Positions 45,406 to 64,000 of a DNA stretch of 64,000 nucleotides are shown here, one piece after another. Made by a program: the position numbers and the translations under genes. Numbering within the stretch: position 1 is the first letter of the stretch; each line of letters begins with the position of its first letter. The notes beneath the pieces were generated by a model that ran no database searches, was not told where the DNA came from, and worked only from the letters and a program-made list of their open reading frames with translations. The stretch comes from Ignavibacteria bacterium (GTDB taxonomy: Bacteria; Elusimicrobiota; Endomicrobiia; PHAN01), in NCBI GenBank assembly GCA_041694835.1, contig JBGFRZ010000082.1, positions 1-64,000 of the forward strand. Direction: 5' to 3'.

Positions 45406-45410
45406 TTAAA

Positions 45411-48400: not shown

Positions 48401-48857
48401 TGGAGCCAATTATAAACTCGACGCGACCCTGCTCTATAATGGAGTAGCCGTCAGCGCCTATCCCCGTGTCGGCGAATAAATCCCTTATATCTTTAAGGCG
48501 ACATGGAGAGTTGTTTATGAAATACTCGCATTCTCCCGATCTGAAAATCTTCCTTGTTATGACGACTTCCGAAAAATCTATCGGAAGGACGTTTTGAGCG
48601 TTGTCGAATATCAGCGAAACCTCGGCCATGCCGAGAGGGGGGCGGTTTTGTGTTCCGTTGAATATTACATCAACCATCTGTTTCGAGCGGAGCGACTTTG
48701 CGCTCTGCTCTCCTAGTACCCACTTTATGGCGTCCGATACATTTGATTTGCCACAGCCGTTGGGTCCGACTATTATAGAAATTCCCGGGCCGAATTCAAG
48801 TTTTGTTTTTTCGGCAAATGACTTAAATCCTATGACTTCGATATTTTTAAGATACAT
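45411..48857 (-). CDS. smc: Chromosome segregation protein SMC
   Basis: GPNGCGKSN Walker A, long coiled coils, hinge, LSGGE signature, LDEVDAPLD. Confidence 0.96.
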   Translation of the reverse strand: MYLKNIEVIGFKSFAEKTKLEFGPGISIIVGPNGCGKSNVSDAIKWVLGEQSAKSLRSKQMVDVIFNGTQNRPPLGMAEVSLIFDNAQNVLPIDFSEVVITRKIFRSGECEYFINNSPCRLKDIRDLFADTGIGADGYSIIEQGRVEFIIGSKSEEKRELLEEAAGISRYKFRKEESLRKIERVQQDISRINVLLSFHHEQVKALESAARKSKQYQKLKDELLRAEITQIIHRIDENRRKIDELQKELCPLVDEKHKNIASIDGLLASAERIKAWAIDADNKIITLQDEISRISSKIEIADSKIEQSEAMIKIAEEKIKSRTEEMERGFAEISALEESLKGLSGKLSDSELAASKIIERCELDSSDYEVVAKRYSEIYSCREEERNRIWSSFLPRLTEKTNLKARLESDLQHLDADANRLNSEINDNLNEIKNLEEEISKKSSEESEIKNQKGALDISFSASISKLKETEAKAEELRNRIFQLKQTISLLEGELKAFAQFETTDPVLSSIRTVLSEFPHIKGPVMDLIKIKQGFEKVVSALLGEKAYYIIAQTESDALAAINLLSEKELGGLTFVVDEKIEHFTKNKKVDEMMEIPAECSKAINYLLSSVRLDGEVVYDGVLIRGGKIASVQAEVIVKKKENESALKSEMKIFENSKEEFDIVISENEALKKELKTAEDLKNDKDFALRWYEKEISQMRGLLREKINLQNLISEEFSQTKADMEKIAKTISDTTKEIEELEIREKASRDKVAALDEEIEKIRPEEERKKKKIDDIKAELMKINPQIESLKNNIQLVDSKITFLKNSIENNASEIENWKKETEIHRGTNSENIELIKRCQTEKTQMQSHLEEILKERDSKNSELAALEANIQKFALEKESLLEKIHHLELEIKTYNVEISAHLSRLADEFEVNEEVARHRLSESLLDAEELSKLRKKIELLGSVNLAAPEEYDALNKKYEFILQQKNDLENAKADLEEIIAKINQTTKQQFSETWEKVRENFQNIFTKLFEGGQADLILTDKENILESGVEIIAQPPGKKLQNINLLSGGEKSLTAVALLFAIYLVRPSPFCLLDEVDAPLDESNVERFLNLLETFTEKSQFLMITHNKRTMLRADVIYGVTMEEFGVSKIISMKFEKPPADLSSPVAV

Positions 48858-48908
48858 GGCTTATCAAGATTTTTCCTTTTTTTATTAAATACTATCAAAT
48901 TTTGTCAT

Positions 48909-48937
48909 ATTCTATCAAATAAAATATGTTATGTCAA
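48909..48937 (-). promoter_or_regulatory. sigma70 promoter of smc
   Basis: TTGACA-17 bp-TAGAAT with extended TG. Confidence 0.75.
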
Positions 48938-48944
48938 TAATTCC

Positions 48945-48997
48945 CAAAAAAAATTCTCCCCGCCTGAACCTTTGCGAAGAAGGTGGCAGGGAGAAAT
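48945..48997 (-). terminator. Probable terminator downstream of DUF4416 gene
   Basis: Minus strand TTCTCCCTGCC...GGCGGGGAGAA stem followed by a T run. Confidence 0.6.
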
Positions 48998-49042
48998 CTA
49001 ATATACTAATAATAAATTTTTTTTATTTTGTCAAGGTTTTTT

Positions 49043-49552
49043 TCAAACGGTTTCAAGTTGAAGGAGCAATTTTTCTCTAACACCCATAATAAAATCCATA
49101 AATGTTCCGGATTTGTAATCGGGGTATGTCCAGGGAAGAAATTGAAATTTGTTTTTAGCGAACTGTAGAGTTATCTCGGCATATATCCCCTCATTAAGAT
49201 AAATCCTATGCGAAAAATCCTTAGTGGATGGCAGAACGAGCTTTGAAGGCGCGAGATATCCGGGATCTATGTTGACGGTTCTTCCGGTGCCGCGAGAAAA
49301 TTTTTTTTCGAGTTTATTGGTTTTCAGTTTTATTTCCGTTATCATCTCGGGTGATATCAATCTTTCGAAATCTAACCAATACCTTTTCAGGTTTTCGCCC
49401 ATCTCTTCGGAGTAATAATCGGTAAAATCGAAAGGAATAATTTTGCTTTTTAAATCAATCGAGCCGAATCTCTTTTCGAGCTCAAATAAAACTGGTGTGT
49501 CGTCATCACGGGCGCTGATAATTCCAACAATCAACTTCATACCTTTTTTCAT
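49043..49552 (-). CDS. DUF4416 family protein
   Basis: TDYYSEEMG, RTVNIDPGY, TKDFSHRIYL, PWTYPDY; start ATG 49552 (track extension is MITE-derived). Confidence 0.85.
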   Translation of the reverse strand: MKKGMKLIVGIISARDDDTPVLFELEKRFGSIDLKSKIIPFDFTDYYSEEMGENLKRYWLDFERLISPEMITEIKLKTNKLEKKFSRGTGRTVNIDPGYLAPSKLVLPSTKDFSHRIYLNEGIYAEITLQFAKNKFQFLPWTYPDYKSGTFMDFIMGVREKLLLQLETV

Positions 49553-49554
49553 TT

Positions 49555-49722
49555 GGGTCTTCTCCATTTTTTGTTGTGCGTATAAAAACAAAGTGTTTGA
49601 GCGGGTTTAATCAAGTGTGAACACTTGATTGCCTCGCAGTCCCGATTTATCGGGACGAGAATGAGCGAAAATACTTTGTTTTTACCCTTACCCAATGTTA
49701 CAACAACATTTGGAGAAGAGCC
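49555..49722. mobile_element. MITE family B, copy 3
   Basis: TIR GGGTCTTCTCCA / TGGAGAAGAGCC; exact 8-bp duplication TTTCATTT (49547-54, 49723-30). Confidence 0.9.
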
Positions 49723-49908
49723 TTTCATTTCTTAGGGGTTTGCTCGTCAGTTGTCCCCCATCAACTGTCAAGATGGTATCGGGAATTTCGAAACTCTTCG
49801 GTATTCATTTTCAATTGATTCAGCGGTTGGTGGGGGACTCCTCGGAGCGCCCTGAAATCGCCTCAAACTTAGTTCTCCAAAATGTCAACATTATTCTTTG
49901 GCAATCCC

Positions 49909-51951
49909 TTATCTCTTCAACAGCGCTATCAGCCGCGACTTCGGAACGGCAAATATCTTTCCAAGTTTTTCCGAGCTTAACCATATCGTATTCCCGCTTC
50001 CTGAAAATCCGCTTATCTTGAAGTTTTTCCGGAAAGCATCGGGCAATGTATAGACGACAGAAACGCTTAATCGCTCGTCGAGTTTATGGAGATATATCTG
50101 ATTTGTAGAAGAATCGCAGCTCCACAGATTTTTCCCGTCGTGCCACACCCCCACCGGCGTCGGTCCAGGGGATTTATACGACTTCAATATCTCAAAATCT
50201 CCGGTTTCCTCGTCAAGCCGTCCGTGATAAATGAGACCCTTCGTCATATCGGTCGCAAAAACATCCCCTTTCACCATAGCGATCCCATTTAAACTCAACT
50301 CGCCGGTAGCATAGGTCTTTATGATGCTAAACGATTCGTTTATAATATGCCTGTTTATCTTTTTGCTCCACGGATTGACTGAATACAGCGCTCCGTCATC
50401 ATACGCTATGGCCGAGAAGTTGTTTTCCGGGAAATGATATATCCTCTTCAAAGAAAGTTTATCGTCGAGCATATGATGGTATACACTCCCGCTCTGCCAG
50501 TCGCAGCTCCATATGTACGAAGTGTCGAGAGCGATGGATGTTGGGAAGGAATAAGGCACATGATACTCTCTCACTCTTTCAAGGGGAATAAAAAAAGTTC
50601 TAAAATAAGCGGCCGCCATCAAAAATACAGCCAACAAGGGCAACAATATGTATCTTGTTTTTTTCTTTCCCGGGATTAGCGACAGCCAATGTTCCTCGGA
50701 AGCTATCGAACTTTCCAGTATAGCATCAATCTGTTCAGAGGCGCTCGCAGAATCAGATAAATCCGTAAAAATATGGACGGGCGGCAAATTTTTTACAGCT
50801 CTATTCAAAATGCCCACAAATATCGTCGGAACAAACGGGAGATTTTTCAACACTTTTTTGGCAACCAAGATATCGGAAGTGATTATCGCAAGCGGTTTTA
50901 TATTTTTTAAATCGCGTACCTTAAATCTGTTCAGATGAAATACCTCGGGAACTCCGATTTTTTTGGAAATATTTTCAAACCCTTTCGCTTCCCCTATAAA
51001 AACGATTTTTCTTTTTGTTTTTTTCTTTGGCTCAAACGTGAGAGTTTCAAGCGACTTTGCGTTTTCGGATATTTTTTTCGAGTAATACGAAACCTCGTCG
51101 CATGGGAGCTGTCTTTGCGTTCTTCTGTAGGCAATTAGATTTTCAACGATGGAAAGTTGATTGCTTAAATAATCATTGAAGTCATTGATCGCGCCCAAAA
51201 AATCGTTTTTGAGACTTCCTATTTCTTCGCTTGACTTCATCCTTGCGCTTTCGACATTGAATTTGAGCGATTTATTCTCCTCATTCAGCCTTTCTTTATG
51301 AGCGGCGAGAGATTCTATGGTTTCATCACGCTTCTGAATCTCACCCTTAAAACGAGAAATCTCGTTGGCAAAAGATTCTTCGACTTCGCTAAAACGTCTG
51401 TTCATCTCGGAAAGGGAGTTTTGGAGTATATTTATATTTTCGCTCAAGATACGTTTTTCTTCGGCGAAAGTTTTCTGAAACATCTCCTTCTCGCTTATGT
51501 TTTCATCTTTAAGGCGAGCCACGGTTTCGTTCAGTGTGTTTATTTTTTCGAGAAGCTGCCTTGTTTCCGATTCGGCATCCTTTATTTTTTCTTCCCAGAG
51601 TATCCTGTTTTTTTCAAGAAGCAAATCGGCCTCTTTGAGCCTGAATTTCTCCTGCCAGTCCTTGAGCTCCCTTTCAAAACTTTTCTCGAGATCCTTCAAT
51701 TTCTCTTCGTAATTTTTTAAGTTAATATCCTGCTGGCTGAGTTTGGATTCTAAAATCTTTTTTTCCTCTTCCTTCGACTGAATCCTCTTTTCCCAAAGCA
51801 TCTTTTCCTCTTCAAGACGCTTTTGCCAATAACCCGAAGAGACCGGTGACGTGAAGCGGCTTGTAAGCTCGTCTTGAATTTCGAGTTCGGATTTTAACTT
51901 TGCAAGTTCCTTCTCAAGTTCAGAATAATTTTCGTTGCGATTGTCGTCCAT
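49909..51951 (-). CDS. Coiled-coil / TM / beta-propeller membrane protein
   Basis: About 250 aa E/K-rich N-terminus, alpha/beta middle domain, TM YILLPLLAVFLMAAAYF, repeats PTSIALD..IWSCD / PVGVWHDGKNLWSCD; start ATG 51951 after GAGGAG. Confidence 0.8.
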   Translation of the reverse strand: MDDNRNENYSELEKELAKLKSELEIQDELTSRFTSPVSSGYWQKRLEEEKMLWEKRIQSKEEEKKILESKLSQQDINLKNYEEKLKDLEKSFERELKDWQEKFRLKEADLLLEKNRILWEEKIKDAESETRQLLEKINTLNETVARLKDENISEKEMFQKTFAEEKRILSENINILQNSLSEMNRRFSEVEESFANEISRFKGEIQKRDETIESLAAHKERLNEENKSLKFNVESARMKSSEEIGSLKNDFLGAINDFNDYLSNQLSIVENLIAYRRTQRQLPCDEVSYYSKKISENAKSLETLTFEPKKKTKRKIVFIGEAKGFENISKKIGVPEVFHLNRFKVRDLKNIKPLAIITSDILVAKKVLKNLPFVPTIFVGILNRAVKNLPPVHIFTDLSDSASASEQIDAILESSIASEEHWLSLIPGKKKTRYILLPLLAVFLMAAAYFRTFFIPLERVREYHVPYSFPTSIALDTSYIWSCDWQSGSVYHHMLDDKLSLKRIYHFPENNFSAIAYDDGALYSVNPWSKKINRHIINESFSIIKTYATGELSLNGIAMVKGDVFATDMTKGLIYHGRLDEETGDFEILKSYKSPGPTPVGVWHDGKNLWSCDSSTNQIYLHKLDERLSVSVVYTLPDAFRKNFKISGFSGSGNTIWLSSEKLGKIFAVPKSRLIALLKR

Positions 51952-52040
51952 ATTTTTTTCTCCTCGCCCCCTGATAAATACTGGGTCCATACCACCAAGT
52001 CGGAAATTAAATTTTCATTCTGCATCACAGGTGTTGGAAT

Positions 52041-52060
52041 ATTCGAACATTTGTTCGAAT
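52041..52060. promoter_or_regulatory. LexA-box-like palindrome, copy 3
   Basis: ATTCGAACATTTGTTCGAAT, identical to copy 1. Confidence 0.55.
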
Positions 52061-52074
52061 TTATCGTCTCACAA

Positions 52075-52232
52075 ATTACTATGTACAAATTACCAACTAC
52101 CTGTTTTTTGCAGACCAGGGTCTCCCGCTACATCGCACTGCTTTGCTATGCCTCTACACTGCCAATAAATCGGCAACTACAATCTGTCATCCGTCATTCA
52201 TCATTTACTATTTGCTATCTACTATCTACTGA
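52075..52232. repeat. Concatenated REP half-sites and heptamer repeats
   Basis: Three units ending CTACA (CCCGCTACA, GCCTCTACA, GGCAACTACA), then TCATCCG/TCATTCA and CTATTTG/CTATCTA runs. Confidence 0.6.
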
Positions 52233-52234
52233 TT

Positions 52235-53776
52235 TTACGGTATTATCAAAATCTCGCCGGGACGGACAATGCCTTTTTCAATTTTTTCCTTGTTCGCTTC
52301 GTAAATTTTGTTCCATTTATCTTTTGTGCCGTAATACCTCTGCGAAATCGACTGCAACGTTTCTCCGGGAAGCACCTTATGCGTTCTTGCGGCAGGTGGC
52401 GGCGGTGTTCTTTCAGGACGTCTGCGCATCTCCTCGGAAATAACAGACGGACTGGAGACCTCTACATTTAAAATATCGGTAATGTTTTTTTCGGGAGTTT
52501 TTGTAAATTCCGCCGGTGAGGGCGGGGTTGATATTAAAACCGGAATAATCTCTTTTTTCTGGACAGGCGCATAAGTGGATATTTCAGCGGTAAACTCCGT
52601 TAGAAGTAAGTCACCAGAGGCGGCCGGCCCCGATGAATATAGGGGAACTTCTAACGGGATAAATTGTTTTTCTTGCACGAGAGCGGGTTCAGGCGGTGGT
52701 ATCGGCAACTTTCTGTGTTCTTCGAATTTGACGGGATGGAATGTTTCCCGCGTTTTAACGACATCTTTTTTTCTTTCACCGAAATAAACCGAAATACCGA
52801 ACATATGACTCCCCGACATTTCAGACATACCCCCTAAAGGATACAACATCGCATAGTCGAAAGAAATATTTTTAATGTTCATTCCGAGACCCGCTGTAAT
52901 CCTCCTGTAATTATTGCTGCCAAAATTGAACCCTGTCCTCAAAACAAGTACTTCGTTTAACAATTTCTTTTCGACTCCCAAATTGACCGTCTGCCGTTCG
53001 GACGATATTACATAATCGGCGGCAAGCAGAAAATCTTTTTCCTCGTATGACGCTCCGAATACATTTCCGGCCGGTCTCTTGTATTTTTTATTATCTTCGC
53101 TTTCAATCTCCGTGTGATAACCAAATTTTATATTGCCGAACCGCAAAATAACTCCCAATGGAAAAGACATGAAATCTCTGTTATACGGTTCTCTAAATAC
53201 GGGGTCGACTTTTTGATAATTATCTCGTATGGGAATTCTTATCAAATAATTTTTGACGCCAGCGCCGACGAAAACAAAATTATGCGGGTTCCACGAAAAG
53301 TTGAGCGCATAAATTTCTTCAGAATAATAATCACCGAGGGAAAGACCGCTGTAGCCTGCGCCAAAACCGAAATTTCTAAAAGGTATTCCGAAAGAAAAAG
53401 AAGCGTTTGATATATTGCTCCTGTCATCTAGACCAATATGCAGTTTGCTGTAGCCAAACGAGAGAGTCGTATTTCTAAGAGACGAAACGCTCGATGGATT
53501 AAAAAACACAACTCCCGCATCCTCCGTCATAGAAGCCGCTGCCATACCGAGAGAACTTATGCGAGCGAAAGCAGGTTTTTCCTCGAAAGCCGCATAAAGG
53601 CAGACAATAGGCAATAGGCAGTGGGCAATAGTAAAATATAGGCAATAGGCAATAGGCAGTAGGCGGTAGTAGTTGGCGGTTGGCGATTTGTGATATGAAT
53701 AACGAGCCACAAGCCACGAGCCACGAGCCACCAATAAACTTTTAAACTCTTGAACTATCCTCTGTCTTTTATTCAT
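52235..53776 (-). CDS. PorV/PorP-like outer membrane beta-barrel with Pro-rich linker and C-terminal LysM domain
   Basis: ARISSLGMA...DAGVVFFNP start typical of FadL/PorV-like barrels; alternating strands ending HMFGISVYF; LysM HKVLPGETLQSISQRYYG...IYEAN. Confidence 0.8.
   Translation of the reverse strand: MNKRQRIVQEFKSLLVARGSWLVARYSYHKSPTANYYRLLPIAYCLYFTIAHCLLPIVCLYAAFEEKPAFARISSLGMAAASMTEDAGVVFFNPSSVSSLRNTTLSFGYSKLHIGLDDRSNISNASFSFGIPFRNFGFGAGYSGLSLGDYYSEEIYALNFSWNPHNFVFVGAGVKNYLIRIPIRDNYQKVDPVFREPYNRDFMSFPLGVILRFGNIKFGYHTEIESEDNKKYKRPAGNVFGASYEEKDFLLAADYVISSERQTVNLGVEKKLLNEVLVLRTGFNFGSNNYRRITAGLGMNIKNISFDYAMLYPLGGMSEMSGSHMFGISVYFGERKKDVVKTRETFHPVKFEEHRKLPIPPPEPALVQEKQFIPLEVPLYSSGPAASGDLLLTEFTAEISTYAPVQKKEIIPVLISTPPSPAEFTKTPEKNITDILNVEVSSPSVISEEMRRRPERTPPPPAARTHKVLPGETLQSISQRYYGTKDKWNKIYEANKEKIEKGIVRPGEILIIP
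53599..53756 (-). repeat. 7/8-mer tandem repeats encoding the N-terminus of the barrel-LysM protein
   Basis: Plus strand GGCAATA-type, TTGGCGG and GAGCCAC-type runs. Confidence 0.85.
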
Positions 53777-53794
53777 TTCTATCGCCTGTCTTTT

Positions 53795-56700
53795 TTATCT
53801 CGCCACCACGACTGTGCCGTTTTTTATTTTATCTCCGACTTTCAACTGATAGATGTAAACTCCCGTCGGAAGCGCTCCGCCCGATTGTTCTTTGCCATTC
53901 CAAACCACCCATAAATCGCTCTTTTTCTCCATCTCTGCCACTTTATAGCCGCTCAAATCAAAAATCTCACCCGTGACACTTTCGGAGAAAGGATTTTCGA
54001 AAGTTACATTAAACTCATCGTTTATCCCATCGCCGTTGGGTGTGAAAACTTTCGGCCATGCGTTTAAAATTTTAAACTCCACCGCTCTTTGAAGAGAGCG
54101 AACCCTGAACTCCCCCGAGTATCTCGCATCTGCAATTAAATATGCCCCCAAATATCTCCCGCCAAGATTGACCCACTCCACTCCGTTAAACCAGAAGACA
54201 GCATAACTGGCGACTTCTGAAGGTGTCTTTGAAACTGCGGGCGACGAAGCAGTGAGGTTTTCAAGTTGAAATTTAAGAGTCAGAGGTTTTTTGAATCCAG
54301 TTTTTATCAATGCCCCTTCCCTATCCATTATTTCAACCATATACGAGAGTTTCGTCTTCTGGTCGTCGGGTGGGTTTTCTTTCTTTGTAATTTTAACGGA
54401 ATAATCCGGTCTTAAAATTTCGGGTTCAGCAACAATTTGGAATTTGCCGTTTTCCGAATGATGAATGTTTTGATTTGGTTCGCCTGCCACCAATACTGCC
54501 GATGGCTCGCCAAGGACTCCAAGTGTATTTATTGCTCTAACCATATAATAGATATTAACGTCAGAGACCAAAGCGAGTGTCAATGTGCTAGAAGATGCGG
54601 GGACAAATGCCACATGGTTAGAAGTAAACAAGTCGTCAAATCTATGGGCCACGTAAACCCTGAAGCCTGCGAGGTTTCCTGGAGAGGAACCATCTGTATT
54701 TTTAATGGGCGCAGTCCACGAAAGGACTATATCTTTTGTATTTGGGATATCAAACTTAAAGTTCGTTGGAGGCAGGGGTCTTGCTGAAGGGTTTGTATAA
54801 AAACTCCAGTCAGTTGTTGGCGTAGAGCGACTCGTTTTATCTACTGCATAAACCCGCCAGTAATAGGTGCTGTCGACCAAGAGGGTCTTATCGAGGGGGA
54901 CTTGATACGACAAAGAAGCAATATTTGAAACAACTTTTCTTGAAGAAAAATCGGGCGATGTCGAATGCCATAACTCATAAACCACAAAGTCTTCAGGGTC
55001 TGGGTCAAAAGAAGATGACCACGAGAAATTAGGCATAAGCGTTTCTATAATGGCCCCGTTGGCTGGGGAAAGCAGAGAAAACGCCGAAGGATTTTCTTCA
55101 ATTGAATTTACCTTGAAACTTAAAACACTTGACCATCTCTGATTGCCCCATATATCGCAAGCAACTGCCCTCCACCAATAAGTTCCGTTCTCTTTAAGTT
55201 CCAGGGTTATATATGAAGTGGTTGTAATTCCGACTGAAGACACAAAGACATTGAAATTTTCATAAGACGAATAATGGACATCATACCAGAATGTATCCGA
55301 TTCGGGGTCTGAACTTGGTGACCATATTAAAGTTGGCGTTCTAGTCGAAATTATCCCTGATGGACTAACAGGAACAAAAGGGTTTGGTGGCAGATTGACT
55401 GCAATAAAACTTCGCGATAGTGTATCTGTTGAACCCGTAAGTGTTGAATGCGCCGTAACATACCAGTAATATGTCGTGTTGTTGGACAGGTCACTTTGAA
55501 ATGTATATGAGGTAATATATATCGGAGAAATCTGAGTTTTAATGGCAAAAAGCGAATTCGTGGAATAAGTCAGAGTGTAATAATACACATAATCATAAGG
55601 GTCAGGGTCTGTTGTTTCCTGCCACAAAAGAGTGGGCTTGAGATAACTATAAAAAGAGCCATCCAGTGGCGAAAGCAGAGAAAAAGCTTTTGGATTTTCT
55701 GAAGTTGCATCAACTATAAAAAACCAGGTTGAGGAATGCGTCATGGCATTAAAGGAATCAATAGCAATAACATACCACCAATATGTAGTGTTTTCATTTA
55801 GCGATGTAGTGACCGAAAAAGGTGGGGAACTAATTCCGACTGAAGAGACAAAAATAGAGAAATTTGAGACGGAAGAATAAAAGATGGAGTAGGTGACGGT
55901 GTCCCCATCCGGATCGATTGCACTTTGCCAACTTAAAGACAGCGTCTGGGTTCTAATTATTCCCGAAGATGCGAGCAAATTGAAACTGCCCGGCGGAAAA
56001 TTTACCGCTTTTACCGTAAAACTTGAAATTTCCGATTGCGTCGTCAGGTTATCCGGAGACGACCTTGCGACAACTCTCCACCAATACACCGCATCTTCCT
56101 GTAAATCTATCAATTGATAGTAGGTGGTGAGTATATCGAAAATGACTGGCGGGGCTGGAGTGGCTGTGGTTGAAGAGTAAGAAATTCCGTAATATACAGT
56201 ATTGCCGGGGTCTAAATCAATAGCGATGCTCCATCGAAGTGTCGGTGATGATGTAAAAATCATTGTGCCGCCCGTGGGCCAGAGAAGTGAAAATGGCTGA
56301 GGCGGTTCATTCACAGTATTTAATCTAAAACTGCCGGTTGACGACGAAACGGTTTCGCGGCCCGTCGTGTCTCTTGCATGAACCTTCCAGAAATACCTGG
56401 CGTTTTCAGTTAAATTCCACCACGGCGACCAGGATAACTGATTAATGCCCGACACTCTGGTAGAAACATTTGATTCAAAACTGATAGATGTAGAAATATA
56501 AACATTATAAACAACAAAATCTGCAGGGTCAGGGTCGGAAGAAGCGTTCCACCAAAGCGTCGGCTGAAGGGTACCGGTTTCTATGGTGTCATTTATCGGC
56601 TGAATAAGCGAAAAAGCCGTCGGCGATTCGCTCGTCGCATTTACAACAAACTGAGGGGTGCCGGTTACTCCCAATGAAAGTAGTCCTTCTGAATCCCTCG

Positions 56701-57433
56701 CATAGACACGCCAGTAGTATGTCGTGTTTTCGTTTAGCGCGGGGGTTGTCCAATTTGTCTGGGTTATATTCTCCACAACGCTTTTTGGCGAAAAATTGCT
56801 TGCGGTTGAATACCAAAGGATGTAACTCGTTATACTGTCGCCGTAGATATTGTCTGTGCCGACAGGAAATCCACCGGCATTTGTCACATCGCCCCATGCC
56901 AGAAAGACCAATGAAGAAAAAACAACTGTTGTCGGGGTTCCTGTGTAGTTGTAGCCACTTACATTCCCAGGTGAGTTGTTCTGAGTCGCCGACTGGGGCT
57001 CAGGACTTGAAGTGTCAAGCAGCGACCAGTTGATGTTGTCCGTCGAAGATTTTATCGCAAAAAAATATGTTATATTATTTACAAGAGATGAAACGACTCT
57101 CATCTCCGAGTTGCTGGAAGAAGTTGAAGTCGAAAATTTTATCCTGTAGGGGTAAGAAATCGATGTGGAGTTGTTTGTCCAGTCGGCTTCTGCGACTATT
57201 ACCCGGTAACTCGAAACTCTTACCTCGTACCATTGAGGCGCTCCTTCCGGCCCACCTGGAGCTGTCCATTGAAGGGTTATGTGTCTGAAGCCGCTTGATC
57301 TTATTGAGAGATCGGTGACCTGATTTGGAACAGCGTTCAGGGTCGTTAATCCAAATAAAAAAAGTATCGTCGGCCAAAAAAAACGAACGGGGCGAAACTT
57401 ATCGATATCCGACAGTTTTGTCCGATGTTTCAT
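53795..57433 (-). CDS. Secreted Ig/FN3-repeat protein with CHU_C (gliding motility / T9SS type B-like) C-terminal domain
   Basis: Signal-like N-terminus; 7 related ~97-aa repeats (mostly F.L..P...W...DPD...LxExxxYxW) between two FN3-like domains; FTPNGDGINDEF...GVYIY...GTVVVAR. Confidence 0.85.
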   Translation of the reverse strand: MKHRTKLSDIDKFRPVRFFWPTILFLFGLTTLNAVPNQVTDLSIRSSGFRHITLQWTAPGGPEGAPQWYEVRVSSYRVIVAEADWTNNSTSISYPYRIKFSTSTSSSNSEMRVVSSLVNNITYFFAIKSSTDNINWSLLDTSSPEPQSATQNNSPGNVSGYNYTGTPTTVVFSSLVFLAWGDVTNAGGFPVGTDNIYGDSITSYILWYSTASNFSPKSVVENITQTNWTTPALNENTTYYWRVYARDSEGLLSLGVTGTPQFVVNATSESPTAFSLIQPINDTIETGTLQPTLWWNASSDPDPADFVVYNVYISTSISFESNVSTRVSGINQLSWSPWWNLTENARYFWKVHARDTTGRETVSSSTGSFRLNTVNEPPQPFSLLWPTGGTMIFTSSPTLRWSIAIDLDPGNTVYYGISYSSTTATPAPPVIFDILTTYYQLIDLQEDAVYWWRVVARSSPDNLTTQSEISSFTVKAVNFPPGSFNLLASSGIIRTQTLSLSWQSAIDPDGDTVTYSIFYSSVSNFSIFVSSVGISSPPFSVTTSLNENTTYWWYVIAIDSFNAMTHSSTWFFIVDATSENPKAFSLLSPLDGSFYSYLKPTLLWQETTDPDPYDYVYYYTLTYSTNSLFAIKTQISPIYITSYTFQSDLSNNTTYYWYVTAHSTLTGSTDTLSRSFIAVNLPPNPFVPVSPSGIISTRTPTLIWSPSSDPESDTFWYDVHYSSYENFNVFVSSVGITTTSYITLELKENGTYWWRAVACDIWGNQRWSSVLSFKVNSIEENPSAFSLLSPANGAIIETLMPNFSWSSSFDPDPEDFVVYELWHSTSPDFSSRKVVSNIASLSYQVPLDKTLLVDSTYYWRVYAVDKTSRSTPTTDWSFYTNPSARPLPPTNFKFDIPNTKDIVLSWTAPIKNTDGSSPGNLAGFRVYVAHRFDDLFTSNHVAFVPASSSTLTLALVSDVNIYYMVRAINTLGVLGEPSAVLVAGEPNQNIHHSENGKFQIVAEPEILRPDYSVKITKKENPPDDQKTKLSYMVEIMDREGALIKTGFKKPLTLKFQLENLTASSPAVSKTPSEVASYAVFWFNGVEWVNLGGRYLGAYLIADARYSGEFRVRSLQRAVEFKILNAWPKVFTPNGDGINDEFNVTFENPFSESVTGEIFDLSGYKVAEMEKKSDLWVVWNGKEQSGGALPTGVYIYQLKVGDKIKNGTVVVAR

Positions 57434-57981
57434 ATCTTTATATGTGTGTAATTAAGCCATCTTATGATTTTTGAGAATACGCTCTTTTTCTCATTCCTCA
57501 CAATCTTGAGTGATGTGAGTTTAAGGTTTAATCTTCTTATCTCGTCCTCATACTGCTTGAGAGTATTTTTATGGCCGCTTATTGCGACCGATTGAGTATC
57601 GATAATATCTTCTTTTTTGTGCAGCACAAGCAAGAAATCTTTTCGCCAGTTTGCGAATTCTTTCGCCTGAACGGAAATCTTCGCCAACTCGTTTTTCAGA
57701 GTTTCTATCTCGTCGCGAAGTTTTTCGTTTTCTTCCCTTATGCTGTTTTTCTCATCCTCAAGAAGTTGCATTTTTTGATTGCCATCCTCCGCCATCCGAG
57801 ATAAAATCTCATTCTTTTTGTTTAAATCAGATCTCAGTCTTGTGATTTCGCTCATATACAGATTGTTTTTCTCTCTGAACAAAGATGATTCTGGCATTTC
57901 ACCACGACAACCGAATTCATCCTCGAGGCGCTCTATCTTTTTAAGAAGCTCTGAAACTTTAGTTGCTCTTTGGCTTGCCAT
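57430..57981 (-). CDS. Small coiled-coil protein with amphipathic C-terminus
   Basis: AAGGAG RBS; E/K/L-rich heptads; overlaps both neighbours. Confidence 0.8.
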   Translation of the reverse strand: MASQRATKVSELLKKIERLEDEFGCRGEMPESSLFREKNNLYMSEITRLRSDLNKKNEILSRMAEDGNQKMQLLEDEKNSIREENEKLRDEIETLKNELAKISVQAKEFANWRKDFLLVLHKKEDIIDTQSVAISGHKNTLKQYEDEIRRLNLKLTSLKIVRNEKKSVFSKIIRWLNYTHIKI

Positions 57982-60900
57982 CGTTTCTCCTTATCTTGAT
58001 TATGGGTTCGTTCAGGTTTTCCCAGAACTTCTTAAACGACGATGCCTTCTTTCCTTCTGAAAACTCTCCCTCGCCCTCTTTATCGACAAATTTCCTAATC
58101 GCCTTCTTGAGTTCATTTATTTCCTCGTCCTTAATTGAGATTTCAATCTCACGGGCTTTGTATTTTTTTGTTATTTCATCTATAATTTCTTTCAGCTCAA
58201 ATACATCCGAGGTTGCGATTTTGGTCGCTGAATTTTTCAGATTTTCATAAGCGTCCGATATCTCTCTCTTCTGAGATTCCATCTCCTCAATTTTTCCGCG
58301 ATACTCGCTATTTAAAAGCGATATATTTTTCTCGAGGTTCTCCGCTCTCGCTTTTAGTACCGCTCTTTCCTCTTCTTTCGCCTTTAACTCGGAATCTTTC
58401 AAAGACAGTTCTTCCTGTGCGGTCTTTATTGAGTGCTCCATTTCGGCTCTTATTTCACTTAACTCTGAATTCAGGGCGGATTTCATCTGCGATTTTTCTT
58501 TTAAAAGGGTTTCAATCTGATTTCTGTATTTCTCCTCCATCTCCCTTTGAATTTCCAATTCCTTCCGCCTGTAGTCGAGATGAAGCCTCTCGATTTCTCC
58601 CTCTTTCGAAATGATATCGGCTTTAAGTCTGTCTTTTTCATCGTACCACTTTGTGAGCATCTGCTCATAATTTTTTTTAGACTCTTCGACCTCTTTCCTA
58701 AGACGTTCGAACTCAAAGGCATTTTCCATCTCCACTTCCCTTCTCACTTCAAGCTCCATCTGCTTCCATTCGGCATTCATATTTCTTATCTGGTTTTCTT
58801 TTAGAACAATATCCTGTTTGATGTTGTTTGCTTCTTTTTGAGCCGATGAAATCTCCTCTCTGAGTTTAACGGTTTCTATCTGATAGTTCTTCTTCTCTAA
58901 TTCAAGAGAAGTGATTTTTCTTTCAATCTCGCCTTTCTCAATCCTAGAATTATTCAGAATCTCCTGCTCTTTCATCAACTGCTCGGCGAGCTTTCTGTTT
59001 AACTCTTCCTTCTGTCTGGCGAATTCATTTTGGACTTCCCTGATTCTTGCGTCGGCATCTTTTTCTCTGAGTAAAATCGCGTGATTCAGATCGGACACCG
59101 CTTTTCTTGCATGTTCAAGCTCAAAACGAATGTGCTCCGCCTCTTTTGAGAGCGCATTACAGCGCGACTCTTCCTTTGAAAAACTCTCTATCAGACGATG
59201 AATTTCCCCGTTAAGCTCCGATATTTTGCTTTCATATCCGCCGATAGTTTTTGATTTTTCCCTCTCAAATTCTTTTGCAAGGTTTGCGACTTCTCTTTCC
59301 GCATCTCGCTGAATATTTACAACATCATTCCTGAGCGACGTGATTTTGGCCTCACTTTCGCTCGTCAACCTTGATATAGTCTCCTGATAATTCTTTTCAA
59401 TTTCCTTTATCCTGACTTCGGCCTCCCTCTCTTTTAGCTCGATAGCGTGATTGCTCTCCGCTATCTTATGACTTGCGTTATCGAGCTCAAAAGTTATCGA
59501 TGCGATTTTCTGCGAGTATGAATCGTTTTTAGATGATAACTCGACTATATGACTTCTAGAGTCGGTCAGATCTTTCTCCATGATTTTTTTGTCCTGTTCC
59601 AACCGCAAACTCCTCATTTCAAACTCTTTCATTCGCGCCGCGTACTGTTGCATCTGATTTTCATATAAAGAGTCACTTCTCTGTGCGTCCTGTCTCAGGA
59701 TAGAAATTTTCTGCTCATACTCCGCTTCTTTCTGTTCAAGCCTCTGCAACCATTGGGCTTCGGCGATTCCGAGTTGAGCTTCCTTTGAGCTAAGTTTTGA
59801 GTCGTATTCGGCCGAAAGGGTTCTCAATTTTTCTTCGTAATGCCTTTTAATGTTTTCGAGTTCGGTTTCCTTCAAACGGACGGCGCTATTAAAATCTCTT
59901 TCGTGATCGGCGAAATATACCTTCAGAGATTTTATCTCCTCTTCCTTCTTTTGTATCTCAAAACCAGATTCCTGGATTTTTTTGTTAAGCTGTTCCTTGT
60001 AAAATAATATCTCCCTGAGAAGTTTGTCCTGTTCTGTTTTAGTCTTCCCCTGGAAAAGCGCAAACTGCGTCTTCAGGAGAAAATACTCCTTCTCTTTCGC
60101 TTCGGCACATTTGACGAGTTCGTTTTTCTCGGTTCTCATCTTTTCAATAAGATGGACGAGCTTCTCGCCCTTTTCTTTCTGCTCCCTTAATTGAACCGAA
60201 GACATTGCAATCTGCGCCTTTATCGCAAGAAACTCTCTATCTCTTTCTTCAAGTTGTTTCAGGAGAATATTTTTTTCTTCCTGATTTTTTGCGACAGATT
60301 CCTTCAAGTCCCTCAAAGCGGCGTCTCTGTCGGATTCCATCCTTGAAATCCTGTTTTCAAAGTCGTCTTTTTGTTCAAGCAGATTTTTCTCGAATGCAAG
60401 CTTCAGTTTCGAGAGCTCTTCTTCTTTATTTCTCAGAGATGTGGACCATCCAAGTTTTTCTTCGTGCCATTTTCTCTCGAGATCTTTTATCTTCAGGGAA
60501 AACTGTTCTTCAATCTCTGTCTCCTGGAAGTCCCTCTGCTGCATCTGTGTCTTTAACGTCTGAACCCATGTTTCTCTCTCTTGAGAGAGTCTTTCCTCAA
60601 GTTCTTTTATCTTCGATTCGGCTTTCGCTTTCGCTTCCTCTATTTCCTGCTCTCTTTTTTCCCGCCTGAGGCGTTCTTGAATGTCTTTTATAGATTCCTC
60701 GACTTTGGAGGCCATCGCTTCTTCTTCCTTAGACTTCATCATCTGTAAGAGAAGTTTTTCCCTTTCCTGCTGAAGTTGATTCTGAAGTTCTATTATCTGC
60801 TGTTGAAGTTTGGTGGCGGACGCGTCGGAGGCGGGGGTGTCCAAGATGGGCAGATGCTGTGCGGGCGGCTTCAGAGGCAGCCCGGTCCTTTTGGGGAGTA

Positions 60901-61006
60901 CGGGCGAGCCCGAAGATGGTTTCGGGGGCAGCGGTAGATTTGGTTTTCCTCCTGCGTGTTGACCTTTCGATGGCAAAGGCGGAAGTTTGGGTTTTTTATC
61001 TTCCAT
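57959..61006 (-). CDS. Giant coiled-coil protein with Pro-rich N-terminal head
   Basis: GGAGG RBS; about 60 aa Pro-rich head, then about 900 aa Pro-free E/K/Q-rich helix. Confidence 0.88.
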   Translation of the reverse strand: MEDKKPKLPPLPSKGQHAGGKPNLPLPPKPSSGSPVLPKRTGLPLKPPAQHLPILDTPASDASATKLQQQIIELQNQLQQEREKLLLQMMKSKEEEAMASKVEESIKDIQERLRREKREQEIEEAKAKAESKIKELEERLSQERETWVQTLKTQMQQRDFQETEIEEQFSLKIKDLERKWHEEKLGWSTSLRNKEEELSKLKLAFEKNLLEQKDDFENRISRMESDRDAALRDLKESVAKNQEEKNILLKQLEERDREFLAIKAQIAMSSVQLREQKEKGEKLVHLIEKMRTEKNELVKCAEAKEKEYFLLKTQFALFQGKTKTEQDKLLREILFYKEQLNKKIQESGFEIQKKEEEIKSLKVYFADHERDFNSAVRLKETELENIKRHYEEKLRTLSAEYDSKLSSKEAQLGIAEAQWLQRLEQKEAEYEQKISILRQDAQRSDSLYENQMQQYAARMKEFEMRSLRLEQDKKIMEKDLTDSRSHIVELSSKNDSYSQKIASITFELDNASHKIAESNHAIELKEREAEVRIKEIEKNYQETISRLTSESEAKITSLRNDVVNIQRDAEREVANLAKEFEREKSKTIGGYESKISELNGEIHRLIESFSKEESRCNALSKEAEHIRFELEHARKAVSDLNHAILLREKDADARIREVQNEFARQKEELNRKLAEQLMKEQEILNNSRIEKGEIERKITSLELEKKNYQIETVKLREEISSAQKEANNIKQDIVLKENQIRNMNAEWKQMELEVRREVEMENAFEFERLRKEVEESKKNYEQMLTKWYDEKDRLKADIISKEGEIERLHLDYRRKELEIQREMEEKYRNQIETLLKEKSQMKSALNSELSEIRAEMEHSIKTAQEELSLKDSELKAKEEERAVLKARAENLEKNISLLNSEYRGKIEEMESQKREISDAYENLKNSATKIATSDVFELKEIIDEITKKYKAREIEISIKDEEINELKKAIRKFVDKEGEGEFSEGKKASSFKKFWENLNEPIIKIRRNDGKPKSN

Positions 61007-64000
61007 TTTTCCCTCCTGATTTGTTATTTATCTTGTTTGTTAATTCCTTCTCAAAGCTAATCAGATTCTCGTTTTTAGGTTCTATGGATATCGCCTTTTT
61101 TATCGCCATAAGAGCGTCATCCAGTTTGTCTGTGTTATAAAAGCATAAGGACATATACTGCTGTGCTTCCGCGCTGGATGGATTATTCCGAGTGAACTCC
61201 CTCAGTATTTCCAAAGACTCGGAGTAACTGCCTTGTTCGCAAAGTTCTACGGCTCTTTTCAAAAGCATCGGTCTGACTTCTTTTGGTGTCTGTCCATAAG
61301 AAACCATCTTTCCCATAAAGTCGTCGGCGAATTTCTTAAGATTTTCCCTCATCTCCCGTCGACGAATGCTTTCTGCCATTATTTCTTTTGTAGTCATTTG
61401 CATACCGGCCTCGAGCACATCGAGTTGATTCATCTTAAGTTCAAGCAGTTTTGTGAATCTATCTTTTTCCGACATTATAGAGTTTTCAAGTTCTGATATT
61501 TCCCGAACCATAGAGATAAGTTCGGTGTTTTTATCCTCATAAAGCTTTAACTGAGCGGATATCTCCGGAGAATCCTTCATATAAGAGGCTCCCGCATCCG
61601 CAAGCTCTTTTCTTAAATTCTCTATGGCTTGAGATGAGAGTTTATGCTGCGACTTATTCTTATCGATTGTCTCTTCCAGAACTCCTTTTAGTTCATCAAT
61701 ATATTTTTGGAGCTCTTCTCCGCGCTTTTTTGTTTCATTTTGCAGACGCTCATTTCTCAACTCAAGTCGTTTTGAGAGGGTGGTTATCTTTTCTTCTTCC
61801 ATATAGATTTTGTTTTTAGACTCTGACAAATAATCGTTGTATTTCCTGAGAAGTTCCGTCAAATCTTTTTCGAGCTTTTTCAAGAGGTTCTTGCTTTTTT
61901 TCTCATGCCTCAATCGCGCAGTCTCGAACTCGGACTTCGAAAGTGCCACTTTGAGTTTTCTGGATTCTATTTCCTTTTCAATCTCTCCGATTATCTTTGC
62001 CGAAGAGTTCTCGCTTTCTTTCAACTTACTTTCCCAAAGATTCACTTCGGCGAGGAGCGTTTCTCTCTCTTTAAGAAGCTTCGCTTCCTGAAGGACCCAT
62101 TCGGATTCGAGGCGATTTTTTTCATCGTCATATTTTGCCTCTAGTTCTCTTTGCGTTTTTATTTTCCCGGAAATCGTTTCCCCGGTTTCCTTCTTTAACT
62201 TTTCCATTTCAGACGACAACTTTTCCATCTCTCGCTCGATCTTTTCTTTCTCGGCGAGGTGTTCTTTCGTTATTCGTTGCTCTTCGTCGGTCACATAGGA
62301 TTCCCATGTTGTTATTTTGTTTCCGAGCTCTTTCATCTCTTCTTCTTTTTGCGATTTTAAATTGCTCCAGTAATCGCCTTGCTCTCTGATAGTCTTTTGA
62401 AGAGTTGATATCTGCTCTTCAAGTCTTTTATTCGTATCAGTCCAGGTTGTCTCTTTATTCTTTAGTTCATTTTTTGTCTGTTCAAGAGATGCCTGTGATT
62501 TATTGATGAACGCATTCAGCTCGCTCGTCTTGGAGCAAAGCGCGGTTTTGCCCGCATTCTGAACTTCCAAAAAGTTGTTTTGGAGCATCGTCAGTTCTTC
62601 GGCCAGAACTTTTCTCTCGTTTTCATAATTTTCGTTTTGCTTTTTTTCCTCCTCGTGCCATGATTTTTCTCTTAAAGCCATCTGCGTCTTCAGGACATAA
62701 AGTTGCCTGTCCAGAATCCTTACTTCATCGCGATTCGTTCCGACTAGAGCTTTTAGCTTATGTTCTAACTCATCCCTCTTCCTATCAAGCGAATGTTTCT
62801 CGGCGGCATAATTCTGTGATGAGTTTTCAAACTTTGTTTTCATTTCATCTTCCAATACTTTTAGATTCTGCTGTCCAACTTTCAGTTTTTCTTCAACTTC
62901 GGATAACTCTTGCTCCTGCTTGATTTTTATGGCTTTCATCTGGTTTTCAAGATTTTCTTTCCTTTTTTCAATTCTTTTGACGAACTGCTCATGCGATTGA
63001 AAATATGAATCTCTATTTTTTGTGTAATTATCCTCCTGTTCCTTCAATTTCGCATTTAGTTCCTGAATCTGCTGCTGCCTTGTGGCAACCATCCCCGGAT
63101 GTTTTTCTTCCAACTGCGCAAGTTCCATTTCATTCGATGTAATTTTGGAAATCAGCAGTTCTTTGACTTTATTAAACTCGCTTTCCATATGATTCAACCT
63201 GGCTTTATACTCCTGTTCAAACCTCAAGTGGTCCGACTTAAGCTTTTCAATTTCACGCTTTTTCTCCGCCAGCAACTCCGCATGGCGGGATTTCATCTCT
63301 TCCGATTCATTTTCAATCTTTTCTATTTCCTCATTTATGAGCTTTTTTTCATTTTCATTTTCTAACTCAAGAATTTTTATTTCTTTTTCATATTTGTGAA
63401 TGTTGGTTTCACGAGATGCGTTTAAAAAAGTTATCTTGTTATCGAACTCTATTAAGATATCAGCATGTTTTTTTCTTGTTTCATCAAGTTTTTTTGAAGA
63501 TTCTTCGAGTTTTTTTCTGACCAACTCAAGCTCCGCGCTTATTATGCTCTCCTTTTCTTCTATCTCATATTTATTTGCCGAAATTAAATCATTCACTTTT
63601 TTACTTATCGCTTGTATATGTCTTTCGGACTCCGAAATTTCACTTTCGCATTTTTCTTTAAAAAAATTAAACCCGACTTTCGTCCTTTCAAGCGACTCTA
63701 TCGCTATCTTCTTCTTGCCTTCAAGTTCAAAGCGGGTGGCGTCCAAATTTTTTTGTAACACCGCTGTCTTTTCCAAAAGAACTTTTTCTAACTGATTGTT
63801 CTCATCGTTTTTCGCGCTTACGGTCTCATCAAATCTCTTTTGTTCTGAAATCACCACACTATTCAATTCCTCTATTTTAGCCTCAATACTTCCTTTTTCT
63901 TCTTTTAGTTTTACATTAAAACTTTCAAGCGCAAGAGAATGATTTTTCTTTTCATCTTCCATCTTTTGCATCAAAGACTGATGGACATTTTCAAGTTCCT
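60996..64000 (-). CDS. Giant coiled-coil protein with C-terminal TPR-like repeats, 5' partial
   Basis: Frame stays open from 63974 to the window end (ELENVHQSLMQK); C-terminal AEAQQYMSLCFY...DDALMAIKKAISIEPKN is TPR-like. Confidence 0.88.
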   Translation of the reverse strand, partial: ELENVHQSLMQKMEDEKKNHSLALESFNVKLKEEKGSIEAKIEELNSVVISEQKRFDETVSAKNDENNQLEKVLLEKTAVLQKNLDATRFELEGKKKIAIESLERTKVGFNFFKEKCESEISESERHIQAISKKVNDLISANKYEIEEKESIISAELELVRKKLEESSKKLDETRKKHADILIEFDNKITFLNASRETNIHKYEKEIKILELENENEKKLINEEIEKIENESEEMKSRHAELLAEKKREIEKLKSDHLRFEQEYKARLNHMESEFNKVKELLISKITSNEMELAQLEEKHPGMVATRQQQIQELNAKLKEQEDNYTKNRDSYFQSHEQFVKRIEKRKENLENQMKAIKIKQEQELSEVEEKLKVGQQNLKVLEDEMKTKFENSSQNYAAEKHSLDRKRDELEHKLKALVGTNRDEVRILDRQLYVLKTQMALREKSWHEEEKKQNENYENERKVLAEELTMLQNNFLEVQNAGKTALCSKTSELNAFINKSQASLEQTKNELKNKETTWTDTNKRLEEQISTLQKTIREQGDYWSNLKSQKEEEMKELGNKITTWESYVTDEEQRITKEHLAEKEKIEREMEKLSSEMEKLKKETGETISGKIKTQRELEAKYDDEKNRLESEWVLQEAKLLKERETLLAEVNLWESKLKESENSSAKIIGEIEKEIESRKLKVALSKSEFETARLRHEKKSKNLLKKLEKDLTELLRKYNDYLSESKNKIYMEEEKITTLSKRLELRNERLQNETKKRGEELQKYIDELKGVLEETIDKNKSQHKLSSQAIENLRKELADAGASYMKDSPEISAQLKLYEDKNTELISMVREISELENSIMSEKDRFTKLLELKMNQLDVLEAGMQMTTKEIMAESIRRREMRENLKKFADDFMGKMVSYGQTPKEVRPMLLKRAVELCEQGSYSESLEILREFTRNNPSSAEAQQYMSLCFYNTDKLDDALMAIKKAISIEPKNENLISFEKELTNKINNKSGGKNGR

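Follow-up and report, generated by a model that had tools for sequence, protein, structure and literature searches.

An Endomicrobiia operon joining giant coiled coils and an adhesin cassette to a flagellar-type rotor points to a possible undescribed cell envelope machine

Introduction

What kind of structure would a bacterium build from giant coiled coils, a secreted surface protein and an outer membrane barrel that are all encoded side by side? The question is raised by six adjacent genes, g3 to g8, at the end of a 64,000-nucleotide stretch (the window) that forms the first 64 kb of the 126.7-kb contig JBGFRZ010000082.1 (assembly GCA_041694835.1). The source is a bin of Endomicrobiia (Elusimicrobiota) of 1.9 Mb in 89 contigs, with 42% G+C and a completeness of 97%. 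Elusimicrobiota are mostly uncultured, and their cell biology has to be approached chiefly through genomic leads. A sequence-only reading of the window had proposed a self-contained, intermediate-filament-like or polar scaffold coupled to an adhesin export site, an interpretation that is partly supported by the present analysis. The six genes make up the downstream two-thirds of a single predicted operon of ~20 kb, which joins giant coiled coils and an adhesin cassette to a flagellar-type rotor without a flagellum and points to a cell envelope machine that has not been described. To our knowledge, the list of envelope machines driven by ions is short, comprising the flagellar motor, Tol/Ton, the type IX/gliding motor and Agl-Glt.

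Genes are named in predicted operon order, and g3 to g8 all lie on the minus strand of the window, co-oriented as had been reported. In the labels used below, G000 is the source genome and other G numbers are relatives, C denotes a contig, L a DNA stretch and f a family.

Results

The first five of the six genes are tightly packed, as the sequence-only reading had noted, with overlaps of 11, 23 and 4 bp followed by a gap of 18 bp between g6 and g7. The first gene, given there as longer than 1000 amino acids (aa), runs out of the window: g3 (60996..64000, and on to its end at contig position 65846) encodes 1616 aa, of which the C-terminal 1000 aa fall within the window (open reading frame [ORF] to the window edge, 60996-63998). 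What could not be upheld is the view of the six genes as a system of their own, as they are the 3′ part of a longer operon on the same strand. Directly upstream of g3 is a gene for a membrane-anchored, 604-aa fusion of FliF and FliG domains with a cytoplasmic TPR tail (YscJ_FliF_C, E = 7.6e-5; FliG_M, 3.9e-13; FliG_C, 2.2e-24). It is preceded by the gene for a barrel of 544 aa that belongs to the PorV/PorQ family and carries a periplasmic TPR tail (NCBIfam PorV_fam, 140.5 bits; cut-off, 90) and, at the head of the operon, by that for a small protein of 122 aa with a signal peptide and a type IX-like sorting domain, which matches sorting-domain models only. Two aptamers of the cyclic di-GMP (c-di-GMP)-I class, on the strand of the operon at contig positions ~70165-69736, stand directly before this small first gene (RF03167, 60 bits, cut-off 59; RF01051, 45.2 bits, cut-off 35). 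Riboswitches of this class also lie ahead of the operon in four of the five linked loci of relatives that were scanned. No published account of the operon was found in searches of the literature on Elusimicrobia FliG, MotA, type IX secretion or non-flagellar FliG-like proteins.

Gene order in relatives, on which the sequence-only reading had staked its proposal, is kept: the succession of small protein, barrel-TPR, fusion, g3 and g4 recurs in 10 of 10 stretches. Relatives of the fusion occupy 57 loci, all in Elusimicrobiota save one that lacks a specific name, with the closest in Endomicrobiia and none in another phylum; gene identities were confirmed by Pfam in three of these loci. Downstream DNA is available for 52 of them, and in 50 a g3/g4-like or coiled-coil-rich ORF is the next or next-but-one gene after the fusion. 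MotA and MotB come after that ORF in 27 loci, so that the coiled coil is encoded between fusion and MotAB, and at one locus MotAB directly follows the fusion. Twelve loci of the Endomicrobiia type have g3 and g4 with no MotAB within the 10-kb flank. Among 40 relatives, orthologs of g4 and of the fusion were both found in 11, and neither was found in 26 (including 20 of 20 in family f4). In the three discordant genomes, either the locus meets a contig end or the assembly is 77-79% complete. Kin genomes are not independent, and this co-occurrence is a pattern rather than a statistic.

The two giant proteins appear to be long cytoplasmic rods. Heptad coverage, by a crude measure, is 0.80 for g3, 0.84 for g4 (57959..61006; 1015 aa) and 0.80 for the small coiled coil g5 (57430..57981; 183 aa), compared to 0.33, 0.26 and 0.34 in shuffled sequences. 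No transmembrane (TM) helix was found in any of the three, and none matched Pfam, NCBIfam or PADLOC above threshold; a match to known, unrelated families is what the sequence-only reading had named as grounds against its proposal. Profile comparison (hhalign) aligned g3 with g4 at a probability of 99.5% (E = 1.9e-22 over 835 columns), while the g4 profile reached a probability of 0.75% against the coiled coil of an SMC protein encoded in the window, used as a control. By this measure, g3 and g4 are paralogs of a family confined to Elusimicrobiota. In a large collection, the g4 family comprises 21 proteins, every named one from Elusimicrobiota and none with a Pfam domain.

The length of g3 is held within narrow bounds in 9 of 10 relatives (1546-1616 aa; the tenth has 1861 aa), with identity to the window copy falling to ~20%, and the 10-member alignment takes up 1657 columns for proteins of ~1600 aa. 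A C-terminal TPR pair, below the cut-off in the window copy, is matched by TPR_2 in seven of ten family members. Three parts of g4 are conserved: its Pro-rich head, a stretch that bears Trp (residues ~60-345) and, at the C terminus, a short amphipathic tail rich in Trp. The hydrophobic moment of this tail reaches the 97th percentile or higher in 8 of 11 members; the tail could serve in membrane targeting or as a TPR ligand. The lineage-specific g5 has a C-terminal tail that, by eye, resembles the g4-family tail. An origin of g5 as a split-off end of g4 was considered and rejected, because the alignment of g4 with its relatives extends over the C-terminal tail that g4 itself possesses, and BLASTP between g5 and g4 is not significant (E = 0.6).

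The source genome has FliG torque domains alongside a MotA/MotB stator. It encodes two FliG_C proteins and two MotA/MotB pairs with MotB plug and OmpA domains, one pair beside a paralogous FliG-like gene on C81 and the other an orphan on C54. The C54 MotA outscores its C81 counterpart against all 32 fusion-linked MotAs of other Elusimicrobiota (median identity, 55.6% versus 36.3%), and we therefore take the C54 pair to be the relocated stator of the operon. It is preceded by ORFs of 473 and 463 aa with signal-peptide-like N termini and no Pfam family, and followed by pyruvate phosphate dikinase (L109:272-5208). The C81 locus (L004, G000:C81:1-17209) begins with the gene for a 2278-aa BNR/fn3 protein with a FlgD_ig-type sorting domain. 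A barrel-TPR and a FliG_M/FliG_C protein that lacks a TPR tail are encoded next, followed by MotA, two copies of MotB and a protein of 1115 aa. The last was examined as a possible g4 relative and dismissed, with an hhalign probability of 0.07% and no family.

Flagellar and type IX components were searched for in five genomes (96-100% complete) along with control genomes. FlhA (PF00771), flagellin (PF00669) and FliM/FliN (FliMN_C, PF01052) were each found in four control genomes and in none of the five, so the rotor does not belong to a bacterial flagellum as far as export gate, filament and C-ring FliM/FliN are concerned. A defense system such as Zorya was also rejected. The nine operon proteins had no significant match to ZorA, ZorC, ZorD or any other model in PADLOC, g5 and g8 giving marginal coiled-coil matches (E > 3e-4); only MotB resembles ZorB, and neither MotA matches ZorA.

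Downstream of the coiled coils, g6 and g7 encode what looks like a cargo and its outer membrane partner. The secreted, 1212-aa g6 (53795..57433) consists of Ig/FN3 repeats (Pfam fn3 and Ig_Rha78A_N; six repeats of ~100 aa) and ends in a type B sorting domain of the type IX kind (residues ~1127-1212; CHU_C, 45.1 bits, cut-off 27, E = 1.1e-11; TIGR04131, 34.6 bits against a cut-off of 35); its orthologs are 27-48% identical. The 513-aa outer membrane protein g7 (52235..53776) has a signal peptide and a 14-strand barrel of the PorV/FadL type (~100-335), from which a disordered, Pro-rich linker leads to a LysM at the C terminus (23.8 bits; cut-off, 20.9). In sequence, g7 falls just under the curated cut-offs for PorP_SprF (21.8; 22.3) and PorV_fam (44.7; 90). 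In the model, the blocks of the barrel have a predicted local distance difference test score (pLDDT) of ~85-95. The best Foldseek match of the barrel is 6h3i_F, a type IX translocon entry (E = 8.5e-9, TMt 0.62); 8gl6_F and FadL come next. We take chain F of both 6h3i and 8gl6 to be PorV. When the g7 barrel and the g6 sorting domain were modeled as a complex, the prediction scored 0.83, compared to 0.00 for the best of three controls, with at least 89% of contacts common between runs and a partner pLDDT of at least 82; the mark applied is reached by 58 of 80 solved complexes and by 2 of 110 mismatched pairs. Within the region of the g7 signal peptide (53605-53756), in-frame heptamer repeat words encode the hydrophobic stretch, an insert that g7 orthologs lack. 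The same repeat-encoded peptide words occur at the N terminus of the FliG-like ORF on C81 (L004:9096-9300), with 57% identity over 61 aa.

The last gene is set apart by a spacer (51991..52234). Its length had been put at about 280 bp, which fits the likelier start of g8, Met14, because 10 of 10 aligned relatives begin there and a GAGGAG motif lies just upstream; the distance is 283 bp from Met14 and 244 bp from the first ATG. It had also been called mostly repeat DNA, which is borne out for 33 bp of heptamer repeats at 52203-52235 (Tandem Repeats Finder) and for a dispersed core of ~45 bp (~52033-52077), which matches 25 further places in the source genome on at least 13 contigs, and does not extend to the remainder, which is unique. 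As the same genes are 12-21 bp apart in three relatives (L018, L027 and L019), the spacer is best explained as a local insertion.

The spacer is followed by g8 (49909..51990; a 693-aa ORF with its likely start at 51951), whose product combines a coiled coil (~19-260; residues 9-262 by the crude heptad measure), a receiver-like domain (~330-440), a TM helix (445-470) and a periplasmic five-bladed β-propeller (~475-693). A model of residues 320-693 (pLDDT 87.9) shows an α/β domain, the TM helix and the propeller. The propeller fold is nearest to glutaminyl cyclases (TMt 0.67-0.75; 3nok, 0.75; 3nol, 0.72; 3mbr, 0.71), and the listing in an atlas is of a mixed propeller clan. It was nonetheless rejected as a glutaminyl cyclase (PF05096), as Pfam gave no match and a profile search of the PDB returned virginiamycin B lyase and not cyclases. 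The g8 family profile matches receiver domains in the PDB (E = 4.4e-12), with no Response_reg match in Pfam. Since orthologs of g8 have kept neither the acidic pair nor the acceptor position, we read the middle domain as a pseudo-receiver; a functional response regulator, with a conserved phospho-acceptor Asp and acidic pocket, was rejected. Word-indexed homolog searches returned six proteins for g8 and three for the g7 barrel, too few for statements on range.

The sequence-only reading had counted g8 as a fourth coiled-coil protein; its ancestry appears to lie in a two-component pair, a kinase-like coiled coil plus a receiver, and not in a filament protein. Its N-terminal coiled coil resembles the N terminus of a histidine kinase (29% over 136 aa, E = 3e-15) that holds the position of g8 in a sister cassette on C53, and paralogs of g8 in the source genome are true Response_reg-TM-propeller proteins. 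In G003 and G009, g8 is split into two ORFs, and for this reason it looks like a fused, degenerate kinase-regulator pair. Members of the Response_reg-TM-propeller family occur on C64 (L107, 14000-20000), C82 (L089) and C84 (L094, 85800-87600), where the output domain would be periplasmic; the one on C64 adjoins a histidine kinase and a barrel-LysM protein. Variants with a TPR in place of the receiver, followed by TM helix and propeller, are found in relatives (L090, L092 and L093). The g8 coiled coil also aligns with the conserved part of the g4 family (hhalign probability, 94.9%; E = 4.6e-8), with tryptophans in register, and with g3 at a probability of 91.4%, against 4.9% for the window SMC as control.

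With these assignments, the earlier domain calls hold for all six genes. So does the observation that no enzyme motif is visible, in that none of the six matched an enzyme family in Pfam or NCBIfam, and the products do span cytoplasm, inner membrane, peptidoglycan, outer membrane and surface as had been outlined.

The cassette of cargo, barrel-LysM and coiled coil plus (pseudo-)receiver-TM-propeller recurs as a trio or quartet. It lies directly after g4 in six genomes of four families: G000, G001, G002, G003, G009 (twice, in tandem) and G039. As for the remaining type IX parts, a SprA/Sov-like protein of 1697 aa is encoded on C72 (L108:6157-11250) directly after lptF and lptG (TIGR04189, 137.7 bits, E = 2.6e-40, cut-off 200), and collinear SprA/Sov-like pieces are present in five of five genomes. 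GldK gave weak partial matches, far below the cut-off, in three of the five. A search for the PorU sortase (NF033707) in the five genomes matched only the C-terminal sorting-domain end of the model (~877-1095), leaving the rest unmatched, and 19 places in the source genome match this end.

A consensus scan gave 40 promoter-like sites (26 expected) and 25 terminator-like sites (15.7 expected), none of them decisive; two weak promoter-like sites at 52269-52221 lie just ahead of the spacer between g7 and g8. Past the 3′ end of g8, this strand continues (44674-49591) with genes for a DUF4416 protein (E = 7.7e-57), the SMC protein (45411-48857) and a 243-aa ORF. We use the name SMC in view of the translation and because other proteins match the SMC model of NCBIfam.

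Discussion

Which known machine does this operon resemble? The core of a flagellar motor comprises the FliF MS-ring, FliG and the MotA5B2 stator. Like it, the operon has FliF-C, FliG_M and FliG_C domains, directly upstream of g3, and Mot-type stators are present in the genome. In contrast, the rotor here is a fusion that carries a TPR tail, its neighbors are PorV-like barrels and coiled coils, and none of the five genomes yielded FlhA, flagellin or FliM/FliN. Crescentin, FilP and Scy are intermediate-filament-like, long, heptad-rich rods without enzymatic domains, and g3 and g4 are rods of the same description. Unlike them, the g3/g4 family has a fixed place in an operon of rotor and stator, and no homology to them was detectable.

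The cassette has closer counterparts. PorP is reported to bind PG1035 in Porphyromonas gingivalis and SprF to bind SprB in Flavobacterium johnsoniae, as type B pairs of cargo and barrel, and PorE combines TPR, β-propeller and peptidoglycan-binding domains (PMC9143113, PMC5053529). Similarly, the sorting-domain surface protein g6 is encoded beside a FadL/PorV-type barrel, g7, that is predicted to hold the domain, and the PorE domain set recurs on separate polypeptides, with LysM on g7, the propeller on g8 and TPR-TM-propeller in sister proteins. The statement that no described system has this composition must be narrowed accordingly: as type IX-style type B cargo with a PorP/PorV-like partner, g6 and g7 are of a known kind. 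The differences are that the host is an elusimicrobiote and not a member of the Bacteroidota, that a LysM fused to the barrel serves as peptidoglycan anchor, and that the propeller, unlike that of PorE, sits on the inner membrane protein g8 with its cytoplasmic coiled coil and pseudo-receiver. Also unlike the type IX system, no PorU was found in the five genomes. Searches for GldL, GldM and GldN were empty as well, but their controls were equally blank.

Bacteroidota gliding and type IX energization reportedly rely on the GldLM motor and on GldKN as a moving periplasmic track to which SprF is tied by its C-terminal tail (PMC12635249). The adhesin-carrying barrels described here likewise have periplasmic C-terminal extensions that could couple them to some internal structure powered by an ion motor. 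Here, in contrast, the motor parts are MotAB and the FliF/FliG fusion, and the giant cytoplasmic coiled coils have no counterpart in that system. Unlike the SprF tail, the extensions are a TPR (upstream barrel) or LysM (g7) and free of cysteine, all cysteines of both proteins lying in the signal region. The Agl-Glt focal-adhesion gliding machinery of Myxococcus xanthus is reported to have a cytoplasmic platform with an elongated coiled coil plus receiver (AglZ) and a giant scaffold (GltI), and shares with the present locus an ion motor, an envelope-spanning set with outer membrane barrels and adhesin, and periplasmic and cytoplasmic TPR proteins (PMC11761067). Its motor is TolQR-like (AglRQS) and its adhesin a lipoprotein (PMC11761067), in contrast to MotAB/FliG and a sorting-domain protein here. 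The likeness is one of parts lists and not of sequence relationship; in g8, the receiver-like domain stands between coiled coil and TM helix.

We tentatively propose, at somewhat short of an even chance, that the operon encodes a single MotAB-driven envelope machine under the control of c-di-GMP that places, displays or moves adhesins; the function is one that we infer. In this proton-driven machine, MotAB from C54 would turn or push a ring of the FliF/FliG fusion, and g3 and g4 would form a long scaffold or track on the cytoplasmic face of the rotor. A continuous coil of ~1500 residues would measure ~0.2 micrometer, and the amphipathic tail of g4 could hold the scaffold at the membrane. Through the coiled-coil segment that they have in common, g8 might dock to the g3/g4 scaffold and reach into the periplasm beneath the g7-g6 complex, itself tied to peptidoglycan by LysM. 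The output would be c-di-GMP-controlled placement, display or movement of surface adhesins, as in gliding machines. The homology between the coiled coils of g8 and g4, as judged from profile alignment, is the strongest link between the two halves of the operon, and binding between the two proteins may be implied by it.

Several observations weigh against this proposal. In family f3 (G004 and G010) the cassette lies apart from the rotor operon, and since f3 cassettes are unlinked, the coupling is not obligatory; in the two f3 loci with scanned downstream ORFs, g4 is followed by M16 peptidases. At least eight further cargo-barrel pairs occur in the source genome with no rotor nearby. The MotAB pair assigned to the operon sits on another contig, C54, and no separate g5 ortholog was found in the stretches of 10 relatives. 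The homology of g8 and g4 could reflect common ancestry without binding. Contact is indicated for a single pair of products, g7 with g6, and in silico, and the high score of that pair may reflect its likeness to the solved PorV-substrate complex 8gl6 rather than binding. GldL, GldM and GldN were found in none of the five genomes, but the control genomes were equally blank and a conventional type IX motor may be present. Finally, all genomes compared are metagenome bins.

An alternative hypothesis, which we regard as rather unlikely yet worth serious attention, is that two unrelated neighbors have been caught in one window: g6 to g8 would be one among many type IX-style adhesin cassettes (cargo, docking barrel and signaling adaptor) served by the SprA-like translocon, g3 to g5 would be part of a rotor operon, and the two would not act jointly. 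The unlinked cassettes of G004 and G010, the tandem duplicate in G009 and the additional cargo-barrel pairs speak for this hypothesis, as does the repeat-bearing spacer of 244-283 bp ahead of g8, and sister cassettes with a true histidine kinase and a true receiver-TM-propeller have a self-contained signaling logic. It leaves aside that the adjacency to g4 is kept in six genomes from four families and that the homology between the g8 coiled coil and g4 stands well clear of the coiled-coil control. No RNA family, riboswitches included, was found within 48500-64000, and the consensus scan gave no terminator-like site in the junctions between g5 and g6 or g6 and g7; neither of the two unlinked cassettes scanned has a riboswitch of its own, and a separate control of the cassette by c-di-GMP is thus not evident.

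If the halves do belong together, their joint product need not be motility or display. The rotor-stator core could instead replace GldLM in energizing a divergent type IX secretion system, with the coiled coils and g8 as secretion accessories. Such a role would suit the SprA/Sov-like protein of ~1700 aa in five of five genomes (even at 137.7 bits, below the cut-off of 200), the 19 sorting-domain places and the many PorV/PorP-like barrels of the source genome, and the failure to find GldL, GldM and GldN beside a weak, partial GldK and a PorU matched at its sorting-domain end only. Yet the blanks for GldL, GldM and GldN are uninformative, given that their controls are blank everywhere; FliG is cytoplasmic, with no evident path for its motion to reach the translocon; and the SprA-like gene is unlinked, beside lptF and lptG. 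We consider this version doubtful. More improbable still is the reading from which we started, in which the coiled coils form a cytoskeleton of their own, intermediate-filament-like or polar, that merely places an adhesin export site. Long, uninterrupted, heptad-rich g3 and g4 without a TM helix would make suitable filaments, and a g3 length of ~1600 aa that persists in 9 of 10 relatives down to ~20% identity is in keeping with a structural rod, but a mere cytoskeleton does not account for a family that in 50 of 52 loci has the FliF/FliG fusion as its neighbor, that lies between fusion and MotAB in 27, and whose phyletic pattern tracks the fusion.

The proposed c-di-GMP-controlled machine can be extended to a more speculative form, which we think unlikely as it stands. 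It would be a third kind of surface conveyor or gliding machine, in which MotAB acting on a fused FliF/FliG ring, and not GldLM or AglRQS, drives adhesin-holding barrels. The g3 and g4 proteins (~1600 and ~1000 aa) would form a ruler or track of ~0.2 micrometer, cassettes would plug in by way of g8, and c-di-GMP would be the switch.

The pairing of g6 with g7 indicates that type IX-style cargo-barrel pairs exist well outside Bacteroidota, and the operon as a whole suggests concrete, testable roles for three large families of "hypothetical" proteins. If the proposed machine is real, the rotor-stator core of the flagellum would be reusable for another output in a phylum without flagella, which would bear on the kinship of the flagellar motor with gliding or secretion machines.

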